DNA of 25,195 nucleotides from an uncultured Gammaproteobacteria bacterium (GCA_964396295.1 CAYNEQ010000001.1:1-25195); one strand, 5' to 3'. Positions 1 to 14,932 are shown, counted from the stretch's first letter. A program made the numbers and translations. Notes: a model not told the origin generated them from the sequence alone.

Positions 1-1581
1 GCAGGCGTTATAGAAATTATTAAATGCTTGCGCCAGATCAAAACAATAACGCGTAATTACCGAAGGGTTATATTCAATAAGCGCCTGCTGCGCCATTACC
101 GAATATTTGGCCAGCGCCAAGAGCAATTGCTTTTCTTCTGGTTGTTTTAATAACTCAGATTGATTCTTCGTATTTATCTTTTCAGCTTTCGATTTTTTGA
201 AGATGCTATGTATTCTCGCTACAACATATAGAATGTATGGCCCGGTAAACCCTTCAAAGGAAGCTGCTTCTTTGGCATCAAAGACAATGTTTTTTGCGGC
301 CTCGTGTTTTTGCATATCAAATTTGAGCGCAGCCATGGCCAAAATTTTTGTATTGGCAACAATTTTTTTCTCACTCCAGTCGGGATGTCGCTGCTGTGTT
401 TCGGATTTTAAAATAGCAAACACGTCATTATACAAATCTTCGTATAAAATTACATTTCCTAAACGCGAACTCATTTTTCCTTCTTTGAGATTCACTAGTC
501 CATAACCAATATGCGTCAATTTTTTACGGAACCCAACTAACTCTAAAATTTTATATAATTGTTTAAAGTAAAAATTTTGTTCTGTGCCGGTAATAACAAT
601 ACTCTCATCAGCATTACACTTTTTAAACTTTGCCATGGCCAACGGTAAGTCGCTGGTCAAATATAAACCTGCGCCGTTTGATTTGCGCAGCAAAGCAATA
701 TCTAAATTATATTTGCTTAGATCAATAATAATCGCTCCCCCTTCGCCAACTTGTGCAATTTTTTTCTGCAATAACTCATCAACTAATTTTTGCCCTTTGG
801 CCTTCAGATCTTTTTCATAAAAAATGGCTTTGTGCACTACACCTAATGCTTTAAAAATTTTTTCAAACTGATCAATACTCCACTGCCTGGTTTTGATAAA
901 TAATGGCCAGATGGTTTTATCCTGATTTTCAATTTTTGCCTGCACTTCTGCCACCTCAGCGGTAAAGTCTGGATTCTCTTTTAATTTCTGACTAGCCTCG
1001 GCATAAATATCTCCCAACCATTTTTGTTTATTCTCTGGTGGTTTTTCATCTTTATGAAATTTTAACAATCCCCATAAACATTTGGCCACATGATTACCAA
1101 AATCATTAAGGTAATTTACCGGATAAACTGCAAAGCCATTTTTTTCATATAACTTAACCAAAGCATTGCCAATACAAACATTGCGAAAATGACCGATATG
1201 GAATTCTTTATGAGTATTGTTAGACGGATATTCCAACATGACTTTCTTGCCCTTGCCAGAAGTATTCTGGCCGTATTTATTTTTTTTCTTTTGAATCTCG
1301 GCAATTACTAAACCGGCCAACTCTGAAGTTTTAAGATAAAAATTTACATATGGTCCCATTGCTTCAACTCGTTCGACAATTTGTAATTTCAAATTTCTAA
1401 TTTCTAATTTAATCTTGTTTGCCGCTTCCACAGGACTCATCCCCCATTCTTTTGCAATACCAAAACAAGCAAAGGCAAAATCACCCATCTCCGCTTTTGG
1501 CGGAACAGTCAATTCTACATCTCCGGTTACCCTGGCTTTTTGCAACAAGGAATCAATCTCTTTTTTAATTTTTTCTATCAT
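1..1581 (-). CDS. argS: Arginine--tRNA ligase (3'-truncated by window edge)
   Basis: Hand-translated; missing from the ORF track because it has no stop in the window. ATG at 1581 gives MIEKIKKEID..., then PPKAEMGDFAFACF, GPYVNF, class I HIGH motif (KEFHIGHFRN), NYLNDFG, and the C-terminal YNPSVITRYCFDLAQAFNNFYNAC running off position 1. Confidence 0.96.
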   Translation of the reverse strand, partial: MIEKIKKEIDSLLQKARVTGDVELTVPPKAEMGDFAFACFGIAKEWGMSPVEAANKIKLEIRNLKLQIVERVEAMGPYVNFYLKTSELAGLVIAEIQKKKNKYGQNTSGKGKKVMLEYPSNNTHKEFHIGHFRNVCIGNALVKLYEKNGFAVYPVNYLNDFGNHVAKCLWGLLKFHKDEKPPENKQKWLGDIYAEASQKLKENPDFTAEVAEVQAKIENQDKTIWPLFIKTRQWSIDQFEKIFKALGVVHKAIFYEKDLKAKGQKLVDELLQKKIAQVGEGGAIIIDLSKYNLDIALLRKSNGAGLYLTSDLPLAMAKFKKCNADESIVITGTEQNFYFKQLYKILELVGFRKKLTHIGYGLVNLKEGKMSSRLGNVILYEDLYNDVFAILKSETQQRHPDWSEKKIVANTKILAMAALKFDMQKHEAAKNIVFDAKEAASFEGFTGPYILYVVARIHSIFKKSKAEKINTKNQSELLKQPEEKQLLLALAKYSVMAQQALIEYNPSVITRYCFDLAQAFNNFYNAC

Positions 1582-1600
1582 AACTTAACTACTTGTATGT

Positions 1601-1689
1601 GGGGTTTGGGGCGGCAGCTGTTTGACCCGCCGAGGCGGGGAGTTCTGGCGCCCTAACACTTTTTGATACTTTTTGGTGACAAAAAGTAT
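1601..1689. repeat. Palindromic intergenic element (REP/MITE-like) between tyrS and argS
   Basis: Perfect 10-bp IR ATACTTTTTG-gtga-CAAAAAGTAT (1666-1689) and GC hairpin CCCGC-cgag-GCGGG (1626-1639), with imperfect outer arms GTTTGGGGCG/CGCCCTAAC. Single copy in window. Confidence 0.55.
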
Positions 1690-1697
1690 TGGTAGGG

Positions 1698-2882
1698 TTA
1701 TTTTATCTTTACAAAAAACCGACTTCCTTTTTGTACAATATCTCCAGACTTCACCATCTCATCAATTTTCTCCACCTTCTTATCATTAATCTTCACACCA
1801 CCCTGCGCAATCACCTGTCTAGCTTCTGATTTACTTTTACAAATACCGGCCTCTACTAGCACGCTGATAATATCATTAGCGCTTGGCTTTAACTCCGCCA
1901 TATCCTGTGGCTTTGCTTTTTCTTGAAACACTTGCTGGAAATGCGCCTCCGCTTTCTTCGCAGATTTTTCTCCCAAGAAAGTTTTTACTACTTCATACGC
2001 CAGCTTCAGTTTTTGATCGCGGGGATTCTGCATCTCGGATTTAATCTTTTTTATTTCTGCCATTGGTAATGTCGTGCATAACTCAAACCCATTATCTATC
2101 ATACCGTCCGTCCAACTCATCACCTTGCCAAACATATCTTCCGGCGTATCGGAAAATGCCACCATATTTCCCTCGGTCTTGCCCATCTTCTTACCACTGG
2201 AATCCACTAATAATTTTGTAGTCAAGACAAATTTTTCTTTATTCTTCAAATCTTTCATAAGTGTCCGACCGGCCAACATATTAAACGTCTGGTCATTACC
2301 ACCAATTTCACCATCGACATCCATAGCCACACTATCATAACCCTGCATCAACGGATATAAAAATTCATGCAGATAAATTGGCTTTTCTTCTTTAATTCTA
2401 TTTTCAAACATATCCCGCTCCATCATGCGCTGTACCGTAAAATATGAAGACAATTCAACCACATCGGCGAAACTCATCTTTGCTAGCCATTTACTATTAA
2501 ACTTTACCTGTACCGGATTTTTCCCGGAGAAATTAAGCACCGCCGCAGCCTGTTTTTTATAATTCTTACAATTCTCAAGCACTTGTTTACGGGTTAATTT
2601 TTGTCGGGCCGAAGTCTTATCAGTGGGATCACCAATCATGCCGGTAAAATCACCGATAAGCATAATGACCTTATGCCCCAAATCCTGGAACTGGCGAAGT
2701 TTAAGCATGGTAATGCCATGGCCAATATGTAAGGTCGGCGCTGTCGGATCATAGCCAGTATAGAGCGTGAGCTGTTTGCCGGATTTGAGTTGAGCTTCCA
2801 AAAATTCTTTTTTGGGATAAATATTTTCCACACCTCTTTCTAAAAGCTCGGCTATTTTTTGTGGGTCGGTATTAACTGACAT
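1698..2882 (-). CDS. tyrS: Tyrosine--tRNA ligase
   Basis: GYDPTAPTLHIGH, IGDFTGMIGDPT, YPLMQGYD, GGNDQTFN, KMGKT (KMSKS equivalent), and a C-terminal S4-like domain (SKSEARQVIAQGGVKIN). Confidence 0.98.
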   Translation of the reverse strand: MSVNTDPQKIAELLERGVENIYPKKEFLEAQLKSGKQLTLYTGYDPTAPTLHIGHGITMLKLRQFQDLGHKVIMLIGDFTGMIGDPTDKTSARQKLTRKQVLENCKNYKKQAAAVLNFSGKNPVQVKFNSKWLAKMSFADVVELSSYFTVQRMMERDMFENRIKEEKPIYLHEFLYPLMQGYDSVAMDVDGEIGGNDQTFNMLAGRTLMKDLKNKEKFVLTTKLLVDSSGKKMGKTEGNMVAFSDTPEDMFGKVMSWTDGMIDNGFELCTTLPMAEIKKIKSEMQNPRDQKLKLAYEVVKTFLGEKSAKKAEAHFQQVFQEKAKPQDMAELKPSANDIISVLVEAGICKSKSEARQVIAQGGVKINDKKVEKIDEMVKSGDIVQKGSRFFVKIK

Positions 2883-2887
2883 ATGAT

Positions 2888-5800
2888 TTATTTTAAATTC
2901 TCTAATTGCTCTACAAATTTTTCTAATTTACTTTTTGCCTCAGTCAACTTTTCTTTTTCTTTTTCTACAACTGCCTTCGGTGCATTCTGTACAAATTCTT
3001 TATTGGCTAATTTATTTTCCAATCCAGAAAGATATTTTTTAATTTCGGCGATTTCTTTTTCCAATCTTGGTTTTTCTTTGGCTGCATCTATGGCTCCGGC
3101 AAGATCTAAAGAAACTTCAGCGCCAGACTCTACAAATTCTAATTTTTCCAACCGAGCCAAAGCCTTGATTATTTCTTCATTTTCTTTTACTAATCTTTCA
3201 TTCTTACCAACATTAATCTTTGCGATTATCTTTTTGGCTGGCTCTATCTTATATTCGGCACGAAGCGAACGAATATGGGTTACAGGAAACTTGATAACAT
3301 CATAAAAAATATTTAATTCCTTCGCTTTCTTTTCTGAAATTTCAACAAATTCTGGCCATTTTTCAACCATTAAAATTTTATCCTTTCCGTAAATTTCTTC
3401 CCAAATAGATTCTGTAACAAACGGCATAAACGGATGCCATAATTTCAAAATCGTATTTAAGATTAAATTTAATATCTCCGATTTACCGCCTTCAACCTTA
3501 GCTATTTCCAAATACCAGTCCGCTATATTATCCCAAGTAAATTCACGCAAAAAATCACCTACTAAAGAAAAGTTATAATCTTCTATGTTTTCAGTCACAA
3601 ACTTAACTGCCTTATTTAAACGAAATAAAACCCACTCATCTGCTAAAGTTTTTGCTTTCAGTTCTTTAATCTCTACCTTCGGTTCATCAATATTCAGGAG
3701 CATGAACCTGGAAATATTCCATAACTTATTTGTAAAATTGCGGAAGCCGGCAATTTTTTCTTCTGACAACTTCATATCATTGCCCGGTGTATTGCCAAGT
3801 AAGAGTGAAAGCCGCGTGGCATCAGTACCATACTTGGCTATCATATCCAGCGGATTGATAATATTTCCCAAAGACTTACTCATCTTTCTACCCTGCTCAT
3901 CGCGCACCAGTCCATGTAGGTACACGGTTTTAAACGGAACTTCTCCCAACGTATAGGTCGTCATCAAAATCATTCTTGCTACCCAGAAAAATAAAATATC
4001 ATAGCCAGTTTCCATGACAGATGTCGGATGAAATACTGATAAATCAGCAAGTGTTCCGTCGGAAGCAATACTTACTGTCGCCACACCAGCTGGATCCAGT
4101 AGTAATTTTTCGGTGTATAAATCAGCTGTCGTATGGGAACGCATGACGCGTATTGGATCGCCGTGAGAGACGATAAGAATTTTTTTATTTGGATATTTCT
4201 GTAGCGTGTCTTTAAAAAATTCTGTCACGCGAGATTTTAATTCGGTAAAAGATTCAAGGCCATTGGTTCCGTCCCAACCACCCGGAGCCTTACGCATATT
4301 CATATAGTCGCCGACTGGCTTACCGTGCATGTCATTACCACCAACTTCCCGGAGGCGATCGTCGGTTATGATTTCTACACCAAGAGTTTTGGCTACAATC
4401 TCCGCAGTTTCTTGGGTTCTGGTAAAGGGGGATGCAATTATCAGTTCAATGCCAGATGATTTTAGTTTTTTGGCTGCTGCTTCCACTTGTTTTCTTCCTT
4501 TACTGGTCAAAGAAAATTTTCCCTCATTAGTTGTATCTAAGATGGCTTGTATATTATGCTCAGCTTCTCCATGGCGCATCACCGTAAACTCCGTCGTTGG
4601 CCAGCCAAGGGTAGAAAATGTCCAGAGACCGGATGAAAACCAGGTGTCTAAGGTATCTAAATCTTGAAAATAAAATTCTTCAGCCGGTCTGTCAATATAA
4701 CTTTCAGCTGTTGCAACACATTGGGTATCTATAGCACTATAATATTTTAAGTCCTGCCACCCCACTATACCCGACTTAACGAGCTCGTATGCCATACGAA
4801 AAGTAAGGCCACATACACTTCTATCAGAATTTGAAAACCAAACAAATTCGTGTAATTTTTTTTGTCTTTCACCAGTAGTAAGAAATTGTGAAGCTATTTC
4901 ACTAAGTTTATTTTGGATTTGATCGGTAGCGATAATACCGCCTTTATAATATAAAAATGCTGTATGATTTTTTGGGTCTGTAATATTATAGTAACTTGGA
5001 ATCTGATGCCCATACCACAACTGGCGACTTATACACCAATCCCGTAAATTATCTATCCAATGGAAGTAGGTTTTCTCAAATCTATCCGGAACAATCTCTA
5101 TTTTTTTATCACGCACCGCTTCTTGCATTAACTGTTTCAAAGTTTTATTTCCTCTGTCTTTTATTTTCTTACTCACATCCACAAACCACTGTGTCTTAGG
5201 GAGCGGCTCAATAATATCACCAAAGCGATCAGAAGTACCGACATTCTGAGTAATGTCTTCTTCTTTTTCTAACAAATCATTTTCTCGTAAATAATTTACA
5301 AATTTTTCTCGCGCCTCTAATACTGGCAGGCCCGCATAAGCATACATCCCAGCCATGAGCGTCATCTTGCCGTCTTCACCAATCACCTGAATAAGTCCAA
5401 TGTCATTTCCAGCCGCTTTTTGCTTTTGATATATTTCAAAATCAACCGCGCTATGAGCTGGCGTCACGCCCAATGCACCCGTACCAAAATTTGCATCGAC
5501 ACTATCGTCGGCAATGATTTTAATTTTGAGCGGAGCGTCTGTGCCTAAATCAACGGTAAACTCCTTGCCAATATATTTTTTATATCGTTTATCTTTCGGA
5601 TTGACTGCCACGGCCGTATCGCCAAGCTTTGTCTCTGGTCTGGTAGTCGCAATCGTAATCGGAAAATCTTTACTATATTTGAAGTAATATAATTTTGCCG
5701 GACGTTCGACATAGATAATCTCATCATCACTAATAGTGGACTGGCCTTTGACTGACCAGTTGATCACCCGATAGCCGCGATAAATCAAACCGTCTTCGTA

Positions 5801-6310
5801 CATTTTTTTAAATACCGTCCGTACCGCCAAATTTCTTTTTTCATCAAGAGTGTAAGCTTCCCGACTCCAATCAAGCGAAGCCCCCATTTTTTTGCACTGA
5901 TTCACAATGGTATCATGGCTCTCCTGGGCAAATTCTTCCACGCGCTTCAAAAATTCTTCTCGCCCCAGATCATATTTAGTCTTACCTTCTTTTTCTAAGA
6001 TCATTTTTTCTACCTTTGACTGAGTAGCGATAGCCGCATGATCAGTACCTGGCACCCAGAGCGTCTTATCACCCTTCATCCGGTGGTAGCGGACCATTAC
6101 ATCTTCGATAGCTAACATGGCCGCATGACCCATATGCAAGGTGCCTGTCACATTTGGTGGCGGTAGAACAATCGAAAACGGCTCTGCATCTGAGGTGGTC
6201 ACACCTTTTTCAACACAAACATCAGGGTTAAACAACCCTGATTCTTCCCATTTTTTATAGATAGCATCTTCGTACTGTTGCGGTTCGTACACCTTTGGCA
6301 GTTCGCGCAT
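2888..6310 (-). CDS. valS: Valine--tRNA ligase with inserted histidine-phosphatase domain (1140 aa)
   Basis: PPPNVTGTLHMGHA, PGTDHAAIATQ, TTRPET, DWCISRQLWYGHQIP, DTLDTWFSS, TGYDILFFWVARM, KMSKS, RNFTNKLWN, KLWHPFMPFVTE, and the C-terminal coiled coil (FVQNAPKAVVEKEKEKL). Confidence 0.97.
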   Translation of the reverse strand: MRELPKVYEPQQYEDAIYKKWEESGLFNPDVCVEKGVTTSDAEPFSIVLPPPNVTGTLHMGHAAMLAIEDVMVRYHRMKGDKTLWVPGTDHAAIATQSKVEKMILEKEGKTKYDLGREEFLKRVEEFAQESHDTIVNQCKKMGASLDWSREAYTLDEKRNLAVRTVFKKMYEDGLIYRGYRVINWSVKGQSTISDDEIIYVERPAKLYYFKYSKDFPITIATTRPETKLGDTAVAVNPKDKRYKKYIGKEFTVDLGTDAPLKIKIIADDSVDANFGTGALGVTPAHSAVDFEIYQKQKAAGNDIGLIQVIGEDGKMTLMAGMYAYAGLPVLEAREKFVNYLRENDLLEKEEDITQNVGTSDRFGDIIEPLPKTQWFVDVSKKIKDRGNKTLKQLMQEAVRDKKIEIVPDRFEKTYFHWIDNLRDWCISRQLWYGHQIPSYYNITDPKNHTAFLYYKGGIIATDQIQNKLSEIASQFLTTGERQKKLHEFVWFSNSDRSVCGLTFRMAYELVKSGIVGWQDLKYYSAIDTQCVATAESYIDRPAEEFYFQDLDTLDTWFSSGLWTFSTLGWPTTEFTVMRHGEAEHNIQAILDTTNEGKFSLTSKGRKQVEAAAKKLKSSGIELIIASPFTRTQETAEIVAKTLGVEIITDDRLREVGGNDMHGKPVGDYMNMRKAPGGWDGTNGLESFTELKSRVTEFFKDTLQKYPNKKILIVSHGDPIRVMRSHTTADLYTEKLLLDPAGVATVSIASDGTLADLSVFHPTSVMETGYDILFFWVARMILMTTYTLGEVPFKTVYLHGLVRDEQGRKMSKSLGNIINPLDMIAKYGTDATRLSLLLGNTPGNDMKLSEEKIAGFRNFTNKLWNISRFMLLNIDEPKVEIKELKAKTLADEWVLFRLNKAVKFVTENIEDYNFSLVGDFLREFTWDNIADWYLEIAKVEGGKSEILNLILNTILKLWHPFMPFVTESIWEEIYGKDKILMVEKWPEFVEISEKKAKELNIFYDVIKFPVTHIRSLRAEYKIEPAKKIIAKINVGKNERLVKENEEIIKALARLEKLEFVESGAEVSLDLAGAIDAAKEKPRLEKEIAEIKKYLSGLENKLANKEFVQNAPKAVVEKEKEKLTEAKSKLEKFVEQLENLK
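4049..4597 (-). other. Histidine phosphatase superfamily (PGAM/CobC-like) domain, in frame inside ValRS
   Basis: About 183 aa between STLGWP and ADLSVFHPT. Contains MRHGE (RHGE at 4576-4565), SPFTRTQET, DDRLREV, ESFTEL..RV and ILIVSHGD. Confidence 0.9.
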
Positions 6311-8359: not shown

Positions 8360-9937
8360 CTAAATCAGCGGCTGCCCCGTCATGTCTTCCGGCTGCGGCA
8401 CATCCAAAAGCTTCAAAATAGTAGGCGCCACATCAGCCAAAATACCTACCGGCTGAATCAGACTCAGGTCATCTTCCGGCGCATCGCCAGACAATCCGGC
8501 TTGGCCTAAAAAGTCTTTGCCAATAATAATGAGCGGCACCGGATTAGTCGAGTGTTCTTTATCTATGTCAGCTGTCTGTAAATTTTTCATTTCTTCTACA
8601 TTGCCGTGATCAGCGGTAATAACCATGACGCCATTTTGCGCCAAGGTGTAATCTGCAATATCTCCCAGGCATTTATCCGTAACTTCACAAGCTCGAATAC
8701 CAGCTGAAATATTGCCCGTATGACCTACCATGTCGGGGTTGGCAAAATTAATCACCACAAAATCATACTTGCCGCTACTAATGATTTTTTTCACCTCTTT
8801 GGTAATTTCCGGCGCTGACATTTCTGGCTGCTGGTCATAACTAGCCACCCGCGCGGAAGGAACTAACGCTCTTTCTTCTCCAGGAAACGGATCCTCAACC
8901 GTGCCGTTGAGAAAAAACGTGACGTGCGCATATTTTTCCGTTTCGGCAATATGCATTTGTTTTAGTCCGGCTTTGCTAATTACTTCAGCCAGTGAATTGT
9001 GTACGACAACCGGCGGAAAAGCGATAGCGGCCGGTAAATCTTTGGCATACTCAGTCATGGTCACGACCAACAGATCTTTCAAATACGTGACCGGAAATTT
9101 ATTAAATGAAGGCACGGTCAAAGCTTGAGTAAGTTCTCGCGCCCGATCAGGTCGGAAGTTAAAAAATATCATCGCATCACTGTCTCCAAACGTAGCTAGC
9201 GGCTTCCCATCATTGGTAATGACGGTCGGAATAAATTCTTCATCATAATTCTCTTTTGCATAGGCTTCGTCTATGGCAGCAATGGGATCCTCATTATATC
9301 GATCTGCCTTTCCTTCAACCATAGCTCGGTACGCTTTTTCACATCTATCCCAACGATTGTCTCTGTCCATGGCATAATAACGACCAGATAACGAAGCAAT
9401 TTGACCCACGCCCAGAGCCGACATTTTTTGTTCTAATTCCAAAATAAAATCACGTCCTGAATTATACAGCGCATCTCGGCCATCCAAAATCGCATGAATA
9501 TATACGTTGTCAGTTAGTTTTTTTCTTCGACATAATTCCAAGAGCGCATAGAGGTGCTCATTACTGGAATGCACATTGCCTGAACTAACGAGCCCCACCA
9601 AATGTAATTTTCCACCTGTTTGTGCAACTTTGGTAATTGCAGATAACAAAGCTTCATTTTCATAAAAACTTTCATCCGCTATCGACATATTAATTCTCGG
9701 GCAACTTTGGTAATAGACCCGACCCGCACCAATATTTAAGTGACCGACTTCCGAATTTCCCATCTCACCAAACAACAAGCCCACTTCATTGCCAGAAGCA
9801 TGAATGGTCATGGTGGGATAATTTTTTATAAATTTAGTAAAGTTAGGTGTGCTAGCTCTCGTAATCGCATTACCGTCTGAATCAGGCGCTACTCCCCATC
9901 CATCCATAATTACCAAGACAACTGGTTTATAACTCAT
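8360..9937 (-). CDS. gpmI: 2,3-bisphosphoglycerate-independent phosphoglycerate mutase (copy 1)
   Basis: IMDGWG, GNSEVGH, DGRD, GRYYAMDRD, NFRPDRAR, AETEKYAH, NPDMVGHTG, TADHGN, HSTNPVP. Confidence 0.96.
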   Translation of the reverse strand: MSYKPVVLVIMDGWGVAPDSDGNAITRASTPNFTKFIKNYPTMTIHASGNEVGLLFGEMGNSEVGHLNIGAGRVYYQSCPRINMSIADESFYENEALLSAITKVAQTGGKLHLVGLVSSGNVHSSNEHLYALLELCRRKKLTDNVYIHAILDGRDALYNSGRDFILELEQKMSALGVGQIASLSGRYYAMDRDNRWDRCEKAYRAMVEGKADRYNEDPIAAIDEAYAKENYDEEFIPTVITNDGKPLATFGDSDAMIFFNFRPDRARELTQALTVPSFNKFPVTYLKDLLVVTMTEYAKDLPAAIAFPPVVVHNSLAEVISKAGLKQMHIAETEKYAHVTFFLNGTVEDPFPGEERALVPSARVASYDQQPEMSAPEITKEVKKIISSGKYDFVVINFANPDMVGHTGNISAGIRACEVTDKCLGDIADYTLAQNGVMVITADHGNVEEMKNLQTADIDKEHSTNPVPLIIIGKDFLGQAGLSGDAPEDDLSLIQPVGILADVAPTILKLLDVPQPEDMTGQPLI

Positions 9938-9943
9938 AAGATA

Positions 9944-11494
9944 TTAGATTAAGCTTTTAGCCGTCATTTCGGCTGGCGGCGTTATACCCATCATGGTTAA
10001 AATGGTCGGCGCTACATTCGCCAATTTGCCATTTGGTAGTTTCCGTTTAATTTTTACAAAACTATTTACGATAATACAGGGCACGGGATTGGTGGAATGT
10101 TCCGTATCAGGTTCACCGGTCTCAGGATTAATCATCATTTCAATATTGCCATGATCAGCCGTAATCATAGCTTGCCCATGATTACGCACTACTGATTGTA
10201 TAATCTTGCCAATCGCCTCGTCAACCACAGCCACCGCTTTTTGCCCGGCCGCAAAATCACCGGTATGGCCGACCATGTCCATATTGGCAAAATTCATGGC
10301 AATAAAATCATACGTCCCGGCCTCAAGGGCATTAACCACATAATCAGCCAGTTTATGAGCGCTCATTTCAGGTTTAGTGGCATAATTTTGCACATCCAGC
10401 GAGCTGATTTTTACCCAATTTTCATCACAAAAATGCTGGGCATAGCCGCCATTTAAAAAATAAGTAATATGAGCAAATTTTTCCGACTCGGCAATATATA
10501 ATTGTTTTCTGGGACAGAGGCTTTGCACTAATCCGTACTGCACATCTCGACTAGGAAAAGCAGTCAACACATCCGGTAAATCAGGACCAAAATCAGTTAA
10601 CGCGACAAAACGAATATTTTTCGGATGCTTACTGCGGCTAAAAGCGCCTGGATTCATTTCTTTAAAATTCTTCTGTACAAAAGCCTTAGTAAGTTGACGA
10701 GACCGGTCGCTGCGAAGATTGAAAAAGAAAACGGCGTCATTATCTTTAATGGCCGCGACTGGTTTATTTTTTTCTGTAATTACTGTAGGGGCGATAAACT
10801 CATCCGACTCTTTTTTATTATATGCTTCCCGCAAGGCTTCCTCAGCACTGGTAGCTTTCCGGCCTTTGCCTAATACCAAGGCTTCATAAGCAGCCTTGGT
10901 ACGCTCCCAATTTTTATTTCTGTCCATGGCATAAAAACGCCCCATCACCGTAGCAATCTTTTCTTTACCCTGAAGATGTTTTTGCAGCAGTCTTAGATGT
11001 TTATTTGCTTCATACTCGCCCGAATCCCGACCATCGGTAAATAAATGCAAATAGACCTGGCTGATTTTTTCTCGACGCAATAATTCCAGCAACGCATACA
11101 AATGTTCAGGCAAAGCGTGGGCACTATTATGATTGGACAAGAGCCCCATCAAATGAATAGCAGTTTTATATTTTTTAACGTGGTGAACGGCTTGATGAAA
11201 AGCGTTGTTTTTAAAAAATGATCCATCTGTTATGGATTCGGAAATATATAGCGCATCTTGCTTGACTACCCGACCAGCACCAAGATTGAGGTGCCCAGCC
11301 TCACTATTACCCTCTTGCCCTTTAAAGAGTCCAACACTAGCGCCACTGGCTTCCAACTGACAATTCGGATACTTTTTCAAGTAGGAAAAGTAGTTAGGCG
11401 CGGTTTTGGGAGTCACTGGATTGCCCGGGTCTTTTGGATCGCCAACCCCCCAACCATCGACAATAACAAGTACAGTTGTCTTTTTTTTATACAT
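9944..11494 (-). CDS. gpmI: 2,3-bisphosphoglycerate-independent phosphoglycerate mutase (copy 2)
   Basis: IVDGWG, GNSEAGH, TDGRD, GRFYAMDR, NLRSDRSR, AESEKFAH, NMDMVGHTG, TADHGN, HSTNPVP. Confidence 0.94.
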   Translation of the reverse strand: MYKKKTTVLVIVDGWGVGDPKDPGNPVTPKTAPNYFSYLKKYPNCQLEASGASVGLFKGQEGNSEAGHLNLGAGRVVKQDALYISESITDGSFFKNNAFHQAVHHVKKYKTAIHLMGLLSNHNSAHALPEHLYALLELLRREKISQVYLHLFTDGRDSGEYEANKHLRLLQKHLQGKEKIATVMGRFYAMDRNKNWERTKAAYEALVLGKGRKATSAEEALREAYNKKESDEFIAPTVITEKNKPVAAIKDNDAVFFFNLRSDRSRQLTKAFVQKNFKEMNPGAFSRSKHPKNIRFVALTDFGPDLPDVLTAFPSRDVQYGLVQSLCPRKQLYIAESEKFAHITYFLNGGYAQHFCDENWVKISSLDVQNYATKPEMSAHKLADYVVNALEAGTYDFIAMNFANMDMVGHTGDFAAGQKAVAVVDEAIGKIIQSVVRNHGQAMITADHGNIEMMINPETGEPDTEHSTNPVPCIIVNSFVKIKRKLPNGKLANVAPTILTMMGITPPAEMTAKSLI

Positions 11495-13768: not shown

Positions 13769-14932
13769 TTATTTTAAGGCATCCAGACCGGGCAATTTTT
13801 TTCCGCTCAAATATTCTAGCATAGATCCACCGCCGGTTGAAGGAAGATCGATGTCAGAAAGAACTTTTAAATTTTGTAAAATCGTAATCGTTTCTCCGCC
13901 GCCCGCGACTCCATAGGCATGACGTTTTGATTGGGAAGCTATAACACGCGCAATGCTATAGGTGCTGTACTGATATGGGTGCTGCTCAAAGTACCCCAAG
14001 GCGCCGTTCCAAACAATAGTTTTGGCTTTTTTAATATAGCGAGAAAATAATTTGACTGTTTCCGGTCCGATATCAAACATACCTAAATCTTTTTTCATCT
14101 TTAGCGCCTTTATTGGCATGGCCATAGCCATCTTACCTTTGGCGGTCCCTACCACTACATCTACCGGCAAAATGACTTTCTTTTTCGGCACATAATCCAA
14201 GACTTCTTTTTTGAATTTTTTATTTACCATGGAAACGCCAACTTTATATCCTTTGGCCCACAAATAGGTATTAAAGATGCCGCCGCCCAACAGAATATGA
14301 TCGGCTTTTGATAAAAAGTTTTTTAGTACTCCAATTTTTGTTTCTACTTTAATGCCGCCCAAAACTAGGACGAGCGGCCGCTTCGGTTTTTTCATGACTT
14401 GGGTCAAACCGGTCAGCTCTTCTTCTAATAATAATCCAGCATAGGCAGGCAAATACTTGGCCACACCGGTGACTGACGGAGATTGCCGATGCGCTACTCC
14501 AAACCCATCCAAGACGAAGAGGTCAGCCAAACTTACTAGTTCGTTGGTAAATTTGAGGCTATTATCTCGCTCGCCTTTGGCAAAGCGAATATTTTCTAGC
14601 ATCACTACGGTCCCGACTGGTAATTTTTCTATTTGTTTTTTAGATTTAGCCAAATCTAGCACTGATAGTACTGGCACATTTTTCTGCAAGAACTTACCTA
14701 GCTCCACGGCAACTGGCTTGAGGCTTAAGGCCGCTTCCACTTTTTCTGGCCTTCCTAAGTGACTAACTATTACAACTTTTGCGCCGCGTTCGACTAAAAA
14801 ATTAATCGTACCCAAAGTCTTTTTTATTTTATAATTATCCAAAATTTTCCTACCCTTCATGGAGACATTAAAATCAGCCCGCAGCAATACGGTTTTACCA
14901 AATAATTTCCCCGCGTGCTCAATCGTTTTCAT
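13769..14932 (-). CDS. pgk: Phosphoglycerate kinase
   Basis: LRADFNV, SHLGRP, LENIRF, DGFGVAHR, GGIKV, DIGPET, VWNGALG, GGGET, STGGGSMLEYLSGKKLPG. Confidence 0.97.
   Translation of the reverse strand: MKTIEHAGKLFGKTVLLRADFNVSMKGRKILDNYKIKKTLGTINFLVERGAKVVIVSHLGRPEKVEAALSLKPVAVELGKFLQKNVPVLSVLDLAKSKKQIEKLPVGTVVMLENIRFAKGERDNSLKFTNELVSLADLFVLDGFGVAHRQSPSVTGVAKYLPAYAGLLLEEELTGLTQVMKKPKRPLVLVLGGIKVETKIGVLKNFLSKADHILLGGGIFNTYLWAKGYKVGVSMVNKKFKKEVLDYVPKKKVILPVDVVVGTAKGKMAMAMPIKALKMKKDLGMFDIGPETVKLFSRYIKKAKTIVWNGALGYFEQHPYQYSTYSIARVIASQSKRHAYGVAGGGETITILQNLKVLSDIDLPSTGGGSMLEYLSGKKLPGLDALK

Follow-up and report, generated by a model that had tools for sequence, protein, structure and literature searches.

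Few enzymes are as conserved as the class Ia aminoacyl-tRNA synthetases. The closest described counterpart of the protein discussed here is the isoleucyl-tRNA synthetase (IleRS) of SR1, which was reported to be interrupted by two phosphoglycerate mutase (PGM) domains and a nudix hydrolase (Kantor et al. 2013, mBio, PMC3812714). That description consists of one sentence, with no analysis of insertion sites, residues, or distribution, and apart from this sentence full-text literature searches yielded no paper on a valyl-tRNA synthetase (ValRS) or IleRS with a histidine phosphatase. A second precedent is the NCBIfam family NF040702 (isoleucine--tRNA ligase, N-acetyltransferase domain-containing), which represents a curated class Ia synthetase with a nested small-molecule enzyme.

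Here we describe a ValRS encoded in a window (the whole stretch of DNA that was analysed) of 25,195 nucleotides, which comes from a tiny-genome CPR/Patescibacteria bacterium. Like the SR1 protein, it is a CPR class Ia synthetase with a PGM-family (His_Phos_1) domain nested in frame in the catalytic core. The two cases differ in host, which is ValRS rather than IleRS, and in location, because the IleRS inserts that were examined lie mostly in the zinc-knuckle loop after the motif RYWGTPLP.W (hereafter site A), whereas the insert in this ValRS occupies the loop between the host motifs GWP and FHPT (site B). The protein resembles NF040702 in its general design, but it carries a His_Phos domain in ValRS rather than a GNAT domain in IleRS and reaches only 148 bits against that family's cut-off of 1999. 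As far as we can tell, the new elements are the ValRS site-B variant, the evidence for replacement of the nested domain, the refutation of a PGM role from the window itself, and a nested hydrolase in the leucyl-tRNA synthetase (LeuRS) of the same genome.

The synthetase gene and its nested domain

The features of valS that are relevant to the insertion are as follows.

2888..6310, minus strand: valS, 1140 aa, an uninterrupted open reading frame
6125..6136, minus strand: HIGH-type motif HMGH, aa 59-62, intact (motif search)
4658..4996, minus strand: 113-aa extra segment in the zinc-knuckle loop (site A), aa 439-551, unrelated to the phosphatase; 24 aa in relatives
4598..4606, minus strand: host residues GWP, aa 569-571, abutting the insert on its N-terminal side (motif search and alignment)
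4043..4597, minus strand: nested histidine-phosphatase cassette, aa 572-756 (site B; PF00300, loop comparison, and model)
4022..4033, minus strand: host residues FHPT, aa 760-763; the next strand ends at the GYD adenylate-site motif (motif search, alignment, and model)
3872..3886, minus strand: KMSKS motif, aa 809-813, intact (motif search)

The host protein has the characteristics of a bacterial valine--tRNA ligase. It scores above the cut-offs of the NCBIfam equivalog NF004349 (948 bits versus 704) and of TIGR00422 (877.6 bits versus 612), and Pfam recognizes a tRNA-synt_1 core in two halves with the phosphatase match between them, an anticodon-binding domain (Anticodon_1, PF08264), and a C-terminal arm (PF10458), in addition to the HIGH and KMSKS motifs listed above. 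The closest named homologues come from Magasanikbacteria, Moranbacteria, and Patescibacteria, and a genome scan detected no other valS in the 873-kb, 80%-complete source genome. An AlphaFold2 (AF2) model of the full-length protein (pLDDT 78.9, pTM 0.72) has as its best PDB match the ValRS of Thermus thermophilus (1GAX), with a TM score by target of 0.79. Besides the HIGH and KMSKS motifs, an anticodon-binding domain and a C-terminal coiled coil are common to both enzymes, but 1GAX lacks the 185-aa phosphatase of the GWP...FHPT loop as well as the 113-aa zinc-knuckle segment. Neither Rfam nor a tRNA search gave a match in the window.

Between GWP and FHPT the window protein has 188 residues, compared with 7-10 (mostly 8) in 116 close full-length ValRS proteins. 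The initial annotation had described an in-frame insert of about 183 aa in a loop of normally about 10 aa, free of frameshifts and stops, and this description stands: the valS frame is open throughout 2888-6310, and the coordinates then given (4049-4597) fit our own placement at 4043-4597. The same annotation had assigned the insert to the histidine phosphatases, and His_Phos_1 (PF00300) indeed matches aa 577-752 (window 4055-4582) with E=1.6e-33 and 116.5 bits against a cut-off of 21.7, covering positions 3-185 of the 194 in the profile. In a genome-wide scan, this insert (120.8 bits) is the only His_Phos_1 domain of the source genome. Host sequence reads STLGWP at aa 566-571, and the insert begins with TTEF and ends with LADLSV ahead of FHPT. 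Because the loop consensus in close relatives is GWP-N...DL..-FHPT, the domain must have entered directly after GWP, with the old DL..FHPT tail retained.

Third-position GC content (GC3) is 0.36 in the insert and 0.26-0.46 in the rest of valS; a foreign composition of the insert was therefore considered and rejected. Inspection of the flanking DNA for repeats that would mark a mobile element gave only short, chance-quality matches, and a search with a defence-system library gave no meaningful match, the best being one to an unrelated wHTH model at E=0.0011.

Independent sequence data cover the locus. Over the insert and both junctions, the window is matched collinearly and free of gaps by a separately assembled ENA contig of 3048 nt. 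This contig differs from the window at nine positions, all C-to-A, which fall within 66 nt at 3x coverage, and one of these creates a stop codon. The premature stop of a 96%-identical database protein (P0002) goes back to these nine clustered C-to-A differences in a 3x contig that is otherwise identical, and we read it as a sequencing artefact rather than a split gene. In addition, one study of wastewater provides contigs that are 100% identical to the region; those of two runs span both junctions, and those of a third run span the N-side junction. The single-run contigs break within the insert, at a depth of 3-8x, and the runs jointly cover it. Among RNA sequencing runs, none was found to hold the sequence.

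The additional segment at site A is a separate matter. It matches no Pfam family, and a fold search with it likewise found no match (best Z 2.6, Foldseek E of at least 0.45), at an AF2 pLDDT of 81. The idea that it is a decayed phosphatase was rejected on these grounds and because a phmmer search with the phosphatase domain returned a single stretch in protein P0001.

Active site of the nested domain

The codons of the principal active-site residues were located by alignment with PhoE and by conservation among site-B inserts.

4571..4576, minus strand: R579 and H580 codons; in RHG, this Arg binds phosphate and this His is the nucleophile; aligned with R10/H11 of PhoE 1EBB and invariant in 13 of 13 ValRS site-B inserts
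4418..4420, minus strand: codon of R631, second active-site Arg
4346..4348, minus strand: codon of E655, presumed proton donor
4163..4165, minus strand: codon of H716, second active-site His

The motifs RHGE, SPFTRT, LREV, and SHGD, from which phosphatase activity had initially been predicted, are all present, at aa 579, 627, 653, and 715, respectively. Moreover, the catalytic set proves to be complete: R579, H580, N586, R631, E655, and H716 align one for one with the catalytic residues of PhoE (1EBB) and iPSP1/PspA (4IJ5), such that the insert has every catalytic residue of branch 1 of the superfamily. In combination with a profile score above the PF00300 gathering cut-off, the RHG motif, second Arg, acidic residue, and second His place the insert in this branch.

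Among solved structures, the insert is closest in sequence to PhoE of Geobacillus stearothermophilus (1EBB/1H2E) and to the phosphoserine phosphatase iPSP1/PspA of Hydrogenobacter thermophilus (4IJ5), both with E about 1e-9. These enzymes share with the insert a length of about 180-210 aa and the RHG...R...E...H set, but they are independent proteins, whereas the window domain is nested in a synthetase loop. The insert also stays below the equivalog cut-offs of such enzymes (59.9 versus 350 for PspA, 39 versus 277 for PRK13463). In the full-length AF2 model, aa 601-720 form alternating strands and helices with pLDDT values of 73-92, and aa 581-600 and 727-750 fall below 60. The stretches modelled at low confidence are the last 30 residues of the insert and aa 581-600.

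The catalytic residues are conserved among relatives. R579, H580, R631, E655, and H716 are invariant in all 13 ValRS site-B inserts, and N586 is replaced by S in only one of them. Similarly, the catalytic residues are retained in about 99% of 198 copies nested in IleRS. Outside the active site, site-B inserts are only 35-41% identical to the window copy, compared with 59-82% for their hosts, and the nested domain diverges faster than the host core in every site-B case compared. Because the catalytic residues remain invariant despite the fast divergence of the rest, the pattern points to selection on the active site. Judged by these sequence features, the insert looks catalytically active.

Distribution, gain, and probable replacement

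To follow the domain among close relatives, a host-core tree of the 116 full-length ValRS proteins was used, from which the insert columns had been removed. His_Phos is found at site B in 10 of these proteins and at site A in 14, and 14 more carry an unrelated segment of 83-114 aa at site A. The minimum numbers of state changes on the tree are at least 6 for site B, at least 12 for site A, and at least 11 for the mid-size segment, and some of these changes separate hosts that differ by only a few percent. Within the genus, genomes G008 and G009 have the domain at ValRS site B and G015 at site A, and the others have none in ValRS. On a broader scale, 25 of 61 genomes (the source genome and 60 others, each representing a species from its genus, family, or order) are devoid of any His_Phos_1 domain, and these include congeners that are 97-99% complete. 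Because the inserts are patchy among close relatives and absent from whole congener genomes, neither ValRS nor the cell requires the phosphatase, which is optional.

Other class Ia synthetases carry the same family. A domain search restricted to long proteins gave 209 hits, nearly all CPR IleRS with the domain after RYWGTPLP.W (site A), and about 200 CPR IleRS carry His_Phos. The IleRS P0003 has a second copy, located in the loop homologous to site B of the window protein, and thus holds two copies in two loops. In the ValRS P0242, Pfam matches four His_Phos_1 stretches, one of which was located and represents a third site. In total, the family occupies at least three ValRS loops and at least two IleRS loops. 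A shared insertion site across related synthetases had been raised as something to look for; site B is used by other ValRS proteins and one IleRS, and most IleRS inserts are in the zinc-knuckle loop. The accompanying suggestion that such fusions already exist, unexplained, among public CPR sequences was correct; the proteins are deposited under generic names. Nested enzymes of other kinds occur as well. NUDIX or GNAT domains co-occur with His_Phos in some IleRS proteins (one combines GNAT and His_Phos), and the LeuRS of the source genome has a HAD_2 hydrolase domain at aa 399-553.

The history of the cassette in this lineage appears to include an exchange. The host core of the window ValRS is 82% identical to that of P0122 and 81% identical to that of P0125, and it groups with both (support 87). 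The inserts of P0122 and P0125 are 76% identical to each other, but each is only 36-40% identical to the window insert, and in all other site-B pairs insert identity tracks core identity. Consistent with this, the domain tree places the window copy as sister to the remaining ValRS site-B copies taken together (a starred clade in the quick tree, 93/88 in the careful tree), and an AU test rejects its grouping with the inserts of P0122 and P0125 (lnL difference 36.5, p=0.0003). The window cassette is therefore probably not an orthologue of those in its nearest hosts, and the simplest reading is that a divergent allele of the same cassette took the place of an earlier copy. The alternative is a strong rate acceleration on a long branch, and because the window copy does sit on a long branch, part of the AU signal may have this origin.

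Relationship of the phosphatase to its host

We consider the best overall explanation, with a probability of roughly 60%, to be that the insert is an autonomous and active phosphomonoesterase, carried as a swappable cassette on a permissive loop of a functional ValRS. It would be a catalytically competent, compact enzyme of the PhoE/PspA type, forming a self-contained domain within the GWP...FHPT loop, which leads from a helix to a strand in the second half of the ValRS Rossmann fold, and the ValRS itself would remain a working, essential enzyme. The insert would represent one allele of a set of cassettes that occupy permissive surface loops of CPR class Ia synthetases (ValRS and IleRS, with HAD as the equivalent in this LeuRS) and that are frequently gained, lost, and replaced. 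Most likely, the phosphatase would act independently of aminoacylation on a small phosphorylated molecule, while being carried by a constitutively expressed synthetase of a class I synthetase gene cluster that also encodes free-standing relatives.

Those relatives and the neighborhood of valS are also relevant to the possibility that phosphatase and synthetase work together. Two genes follow valS on the same strand.

1698..2882, minus strand: tyrS, beginning 5 nt past the valS stop (tRNA-synt_1b and S4)
1..1581, minus strand: argS, which runs off the window; valS, tyrS, and argS thus stand as three class I synthetase genes in tandem (profile match)

With phmmer, run exhaustively against 1.84 billion representatives, 12,360 hits were obtained, and the best 150 were classified. 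These comprise 87 IleRS, 6 ValRS, and 57 proteins that are not aminoacyl-tRNA synthetases (aaRS), and no other host protein occurs among the 150. Most of the 57 are free-standing, with lengths of about 160-260 aa (49 are up to 260 aa), and a few have tandem domains. Seven free-standing relatives were looked up, and six proved informative (the contig of the seventh is too short). Four of these six adjoin or lie near class I aaRS genes: two (P0255 and P0258) are directly downstream of argS and tail-to-tail with ileS, one (P0263) follows argS with a 59-aa ORF between them and is itself followed by a NUDIX gene, and one (P0313) is upstream of an aaRS gene that could be assigned to class Ia but not to a type. 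The remaining two (P0267 and P0287), from more distant clades, are found among unrelated genes. Free-standing His_Phos genes from the same genus, family, and order are likewise not beside aaRS genes, and their similarity to the domain is weak (21-38 bits).

Perhaps the phosphatase is a working partner of the synthetase that acts on 3'-phosphorylated or 3'-pyrophosphorylated tRNA CCA ends, on a phospho-synthetase, on nucleotide by-products, or on phosphorylated poisons, which would set it alongside the NUDIX, GNAT, and HAD domains of sister synthetases. Several observations fit such a role, including the restriction of every fused member among the best 150 representatives to IleRS or ValRS, the location of four of six informative free-standing relatives by class I aaRS genes, the valS-tyrS-argS tandem, the NUDIX and GNAT domains alongside His_Phos in some IleRS, the HAD_2 domain of this LeuRS, and the conserved active site. 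The strict host range and the position of free-standing relatives by argS and ileS could be read as readily in favor of a real tie to tRNA charging as of an autonomous cassette. We nonetheless regard it as unlikely, if possible, because the insert is dispensable, because its distribution over at least three ValRS and two IleRS sites leaves no fixed geometry, and because the more distant free-standing clades are not linked to aaRS genes. We also know of no histidine-phosphatase enzyme that heals RNA ends.

The topology of the model adds to these reservations. In its secondary structure, the insert enters a few residues ahead of strand 763-768, whose C-terminal end is G769-Y770-D771, and the first strand of the insert (574-578) carries RHG at its far end. 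The insert would thus leave the sheet at the edge opposite the adenylate pocket that GYD lines. With the insert at the N-terminal strand end, GYD at the C-terminal end, and RHG at the far end, the phosphatase and adenylate pockets should point apart, and the predicted fold topology would speak against coupling to the charging site. The initial annotation had proposed that the phosphatase is tethered to the site of tRNA charging, and this proposal is correspondingly weakened, both by this entry from the opposite face, as deduced from topology, and by the multiple insertion loops, the close relatives without the insert, and the congener genomes without His_Phos_1. The healing of tRNA 3' ends and the processing of phospho-amino acids, which the same annotation put forward, are conjectures.

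A broader version of this idea is more doubtful still. The nested phosphatase, the NUDIX, GNAT, and HAD domains, and the free genes by argS and ileS could conceivably form a synthetase-associated repair or detoxification layer in CPR, which might free tRNA CCA ends that are damaged or modified by toxins of a 3'-phosphate or 3'-pyrophosphate, or might break down phosphorylated poisons at the synthetase that they target.

It is improbable, though by a smaller measure than the explanations that follow, that the insert is an inactive passenger or structural module whose fold is kept or decaying and whose phosphatase chemistry is irrelevant. The much faster evolution of the insert relative to its host, its frequent gain and loss, and the two stretches of low model confidence in the window copy would all be expected of a passenger. 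Furthermore, degenerate copies in other ValRS proteins read VAHGES, LVHSTT, or FVHATT, and because six of 18 ValRS site-A/C copies are without some of the catalytic residues, the domain can evidently persist without activity. For the window copy, however, the retention of R579, H580, R631, E655, and H716 in all 13 site-B inserts despite about 60% divergence elsewhere speaks against this reading, as do the open frame and the host-like GC3 of the insert.

The remaining features of interest bear on whether the insert could be the organism's cofactor-dependent phosphoglycerate mutase (dPGM), fused to ValRS.

8360..11494, minus strand: two tandem cofactor-independent phosphoglycerate mutase (iPGM) genes, 8360-9937 and 9944-11494 (profile matches)

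We consider this very improbable. It is true that dPGM_arch is the best NCBIfam match of the insert outside the aaRS families and that the insert is the only His_Phos_1 domain in the source genome. However, the scores for dPGM_arch (101.6 bits versus a cut-off of 225) and GpmB (58.1 versus 261) are both far too low, the closest solved structures are the phosphatases PspA, PhoE, and TIGAR rather than mutases, and many relatives are without any His_Phos_1 domain. In addition, the iPGM genes are situated about 2 kb from valS, with enolase and PGK beside them in the window. Because two iPGM genes, enolase, and PGK are present, a PGM role of the insert is unnecessary. We therefore rejected the possibility that the insert fills a gap in glycolysis, and the PGM-like activity that had been offered as one option for the domain is not supported.

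Finally, an assembly chimera or an intein is scarcely credible, because, despite the low depth and the single-run contigs that end inside the insert, the ENA contig and contigs from different runs cross the junctions, a dozen other ValRS proteins, from other samples, show these same junctions, and, as initially noted, there is no intein signature (no Hint or intein Pfam match, and no splice-junction residues).

The observations have implications beyond this one gene. The class Ia synthetase core serves here as a platform on which whole additional enzymes dock and are swapped over short evolutionary times. Because the NCBI label of several such proteins is only "class I tRNA ligase family protein", caution is advisable in marker-gene phylogenies and in annotation. 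Should the phosphatase be a mere passenger, it would offer a clear example from nature of how an essential enzyme tolerates inserted domains and the turnover of cassettes, which would be useful for protein engineering. If instead it works with the synthetase, it would reveal a new step in the upkeep of tRNA charging in minimal-genome organisms.

Enzymes nested in other class Ia synthetases

The phosphatase cassette of valS is not the only nested enzyme in this genome, as the following gene on another contig carries one as well:

G000:C34:3210-6317 (locus L015), minus strand, leucyl-tRNA synthetase (LeuRS) of 1036 aa with a nested HAD_2 hydrolase domain

The HAD_2 match (PF13419, aa 399-553, E=2.3e-9) retains an FDFDG motif and is located directly past the editing domain. 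LeuRS is a second class Ia synthetase of the genome with a phosphatase-type enzyme nested within it. The isoleucyl-tRNA synthetase (IleRS) on contig C38 lacks an insert both at the zinc-knuckle loop (site A) and at the GWP...FHPT loop that houses the valS cassette (site B).

Multiple and degenerate copies are found among public metagenome proteins and other ValRS. ValRS P0242 (1161 aa) has four stretches matched by His_Phos_1 in Pfam, and the stretch that was located begins directly past the editing domain, which represents a third insertion site. IleRS P0003 carries two phosphatase copies, each in a different loop. Furthermore, catalytic residues are missing from the site-A phosphatase of ValRS P0176, P0193, P0199, P0180, P0229, and P0235, where RHG is replaced by AHG, VHS, or VHA and E or H is lost while the frame remains intact. 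These copies look like pseudo-phosphatase modules.

Gene neighborhood of the window

Three class I synthetase genes are arranged in tandem on the minus strand (window 1-6310), with valS followed by:

1698-2882, minus strand, tyrS, starting 5 nt past the valS stop
1-1581, minus strand, argS, running off the window

Some free-standing relatives of the phosphatase, on other CPR contigs, lie directly downstream of argS and abut ileS. Elsewhere in the window is a glycolytic group:

8360-9937, minus strand, cofactor-independent phosphoglycerate mutase, 525 aa
9944-11494, minus strand, its tandem paralogue, 516 aa
11498-12784, enolase, adjoining the mutase pair
13769-14932, PGK, in the same neighborhood

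A mutase pair is unusual where the genome is <1 Mb. A SIMPL/DUF541 gene is also present in this neighborhood.

Further features of the valS sequence

L010, a separately assembled ENA contig with 3x coverage, has the same sequence as the window over 3 kb, except for nine mismatches within 66 nt (L010 2417-2482, window 4027-4092). All nine are C-to-A on the coding strand, and one creates a stop. This cluster looks like a sequencing-damage artefact that would lie behind the truncated database protein P0002.

The gene also carries a second extra segment:

4658-4996, minus strand, 113 aa (aa 439-551) in the zinc-knuckle loop, which is 24 aa in relatives

The segment has a loose counterpart in approximately 12 related ValRS, a GC3 of 0.20, and an AT content above that of the rest of the gene. 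No Pfam family matches it. AF2 models it as a small alpha/beta module (pLDDT 81), for which fold comparison returned nothing convincing (top Z 2.6, Foldseek E>=0.45). The segment cannot be recognised as a phosphatase remnant.

Finally, the editing-domain motif of valS reads GTGALGVTPAHSAVD (aa 276-290, window about 5438-5485), and the usual form of this ValRS motif has Lys and Asp. Because G276, G278, A279, G281, T283, A285, H286, S287, and D290 do not vary across the 50 aligned relatives, the alignment indicates that the atypical motif is a trait of the lineage rather than a peculiarity of this single gene.
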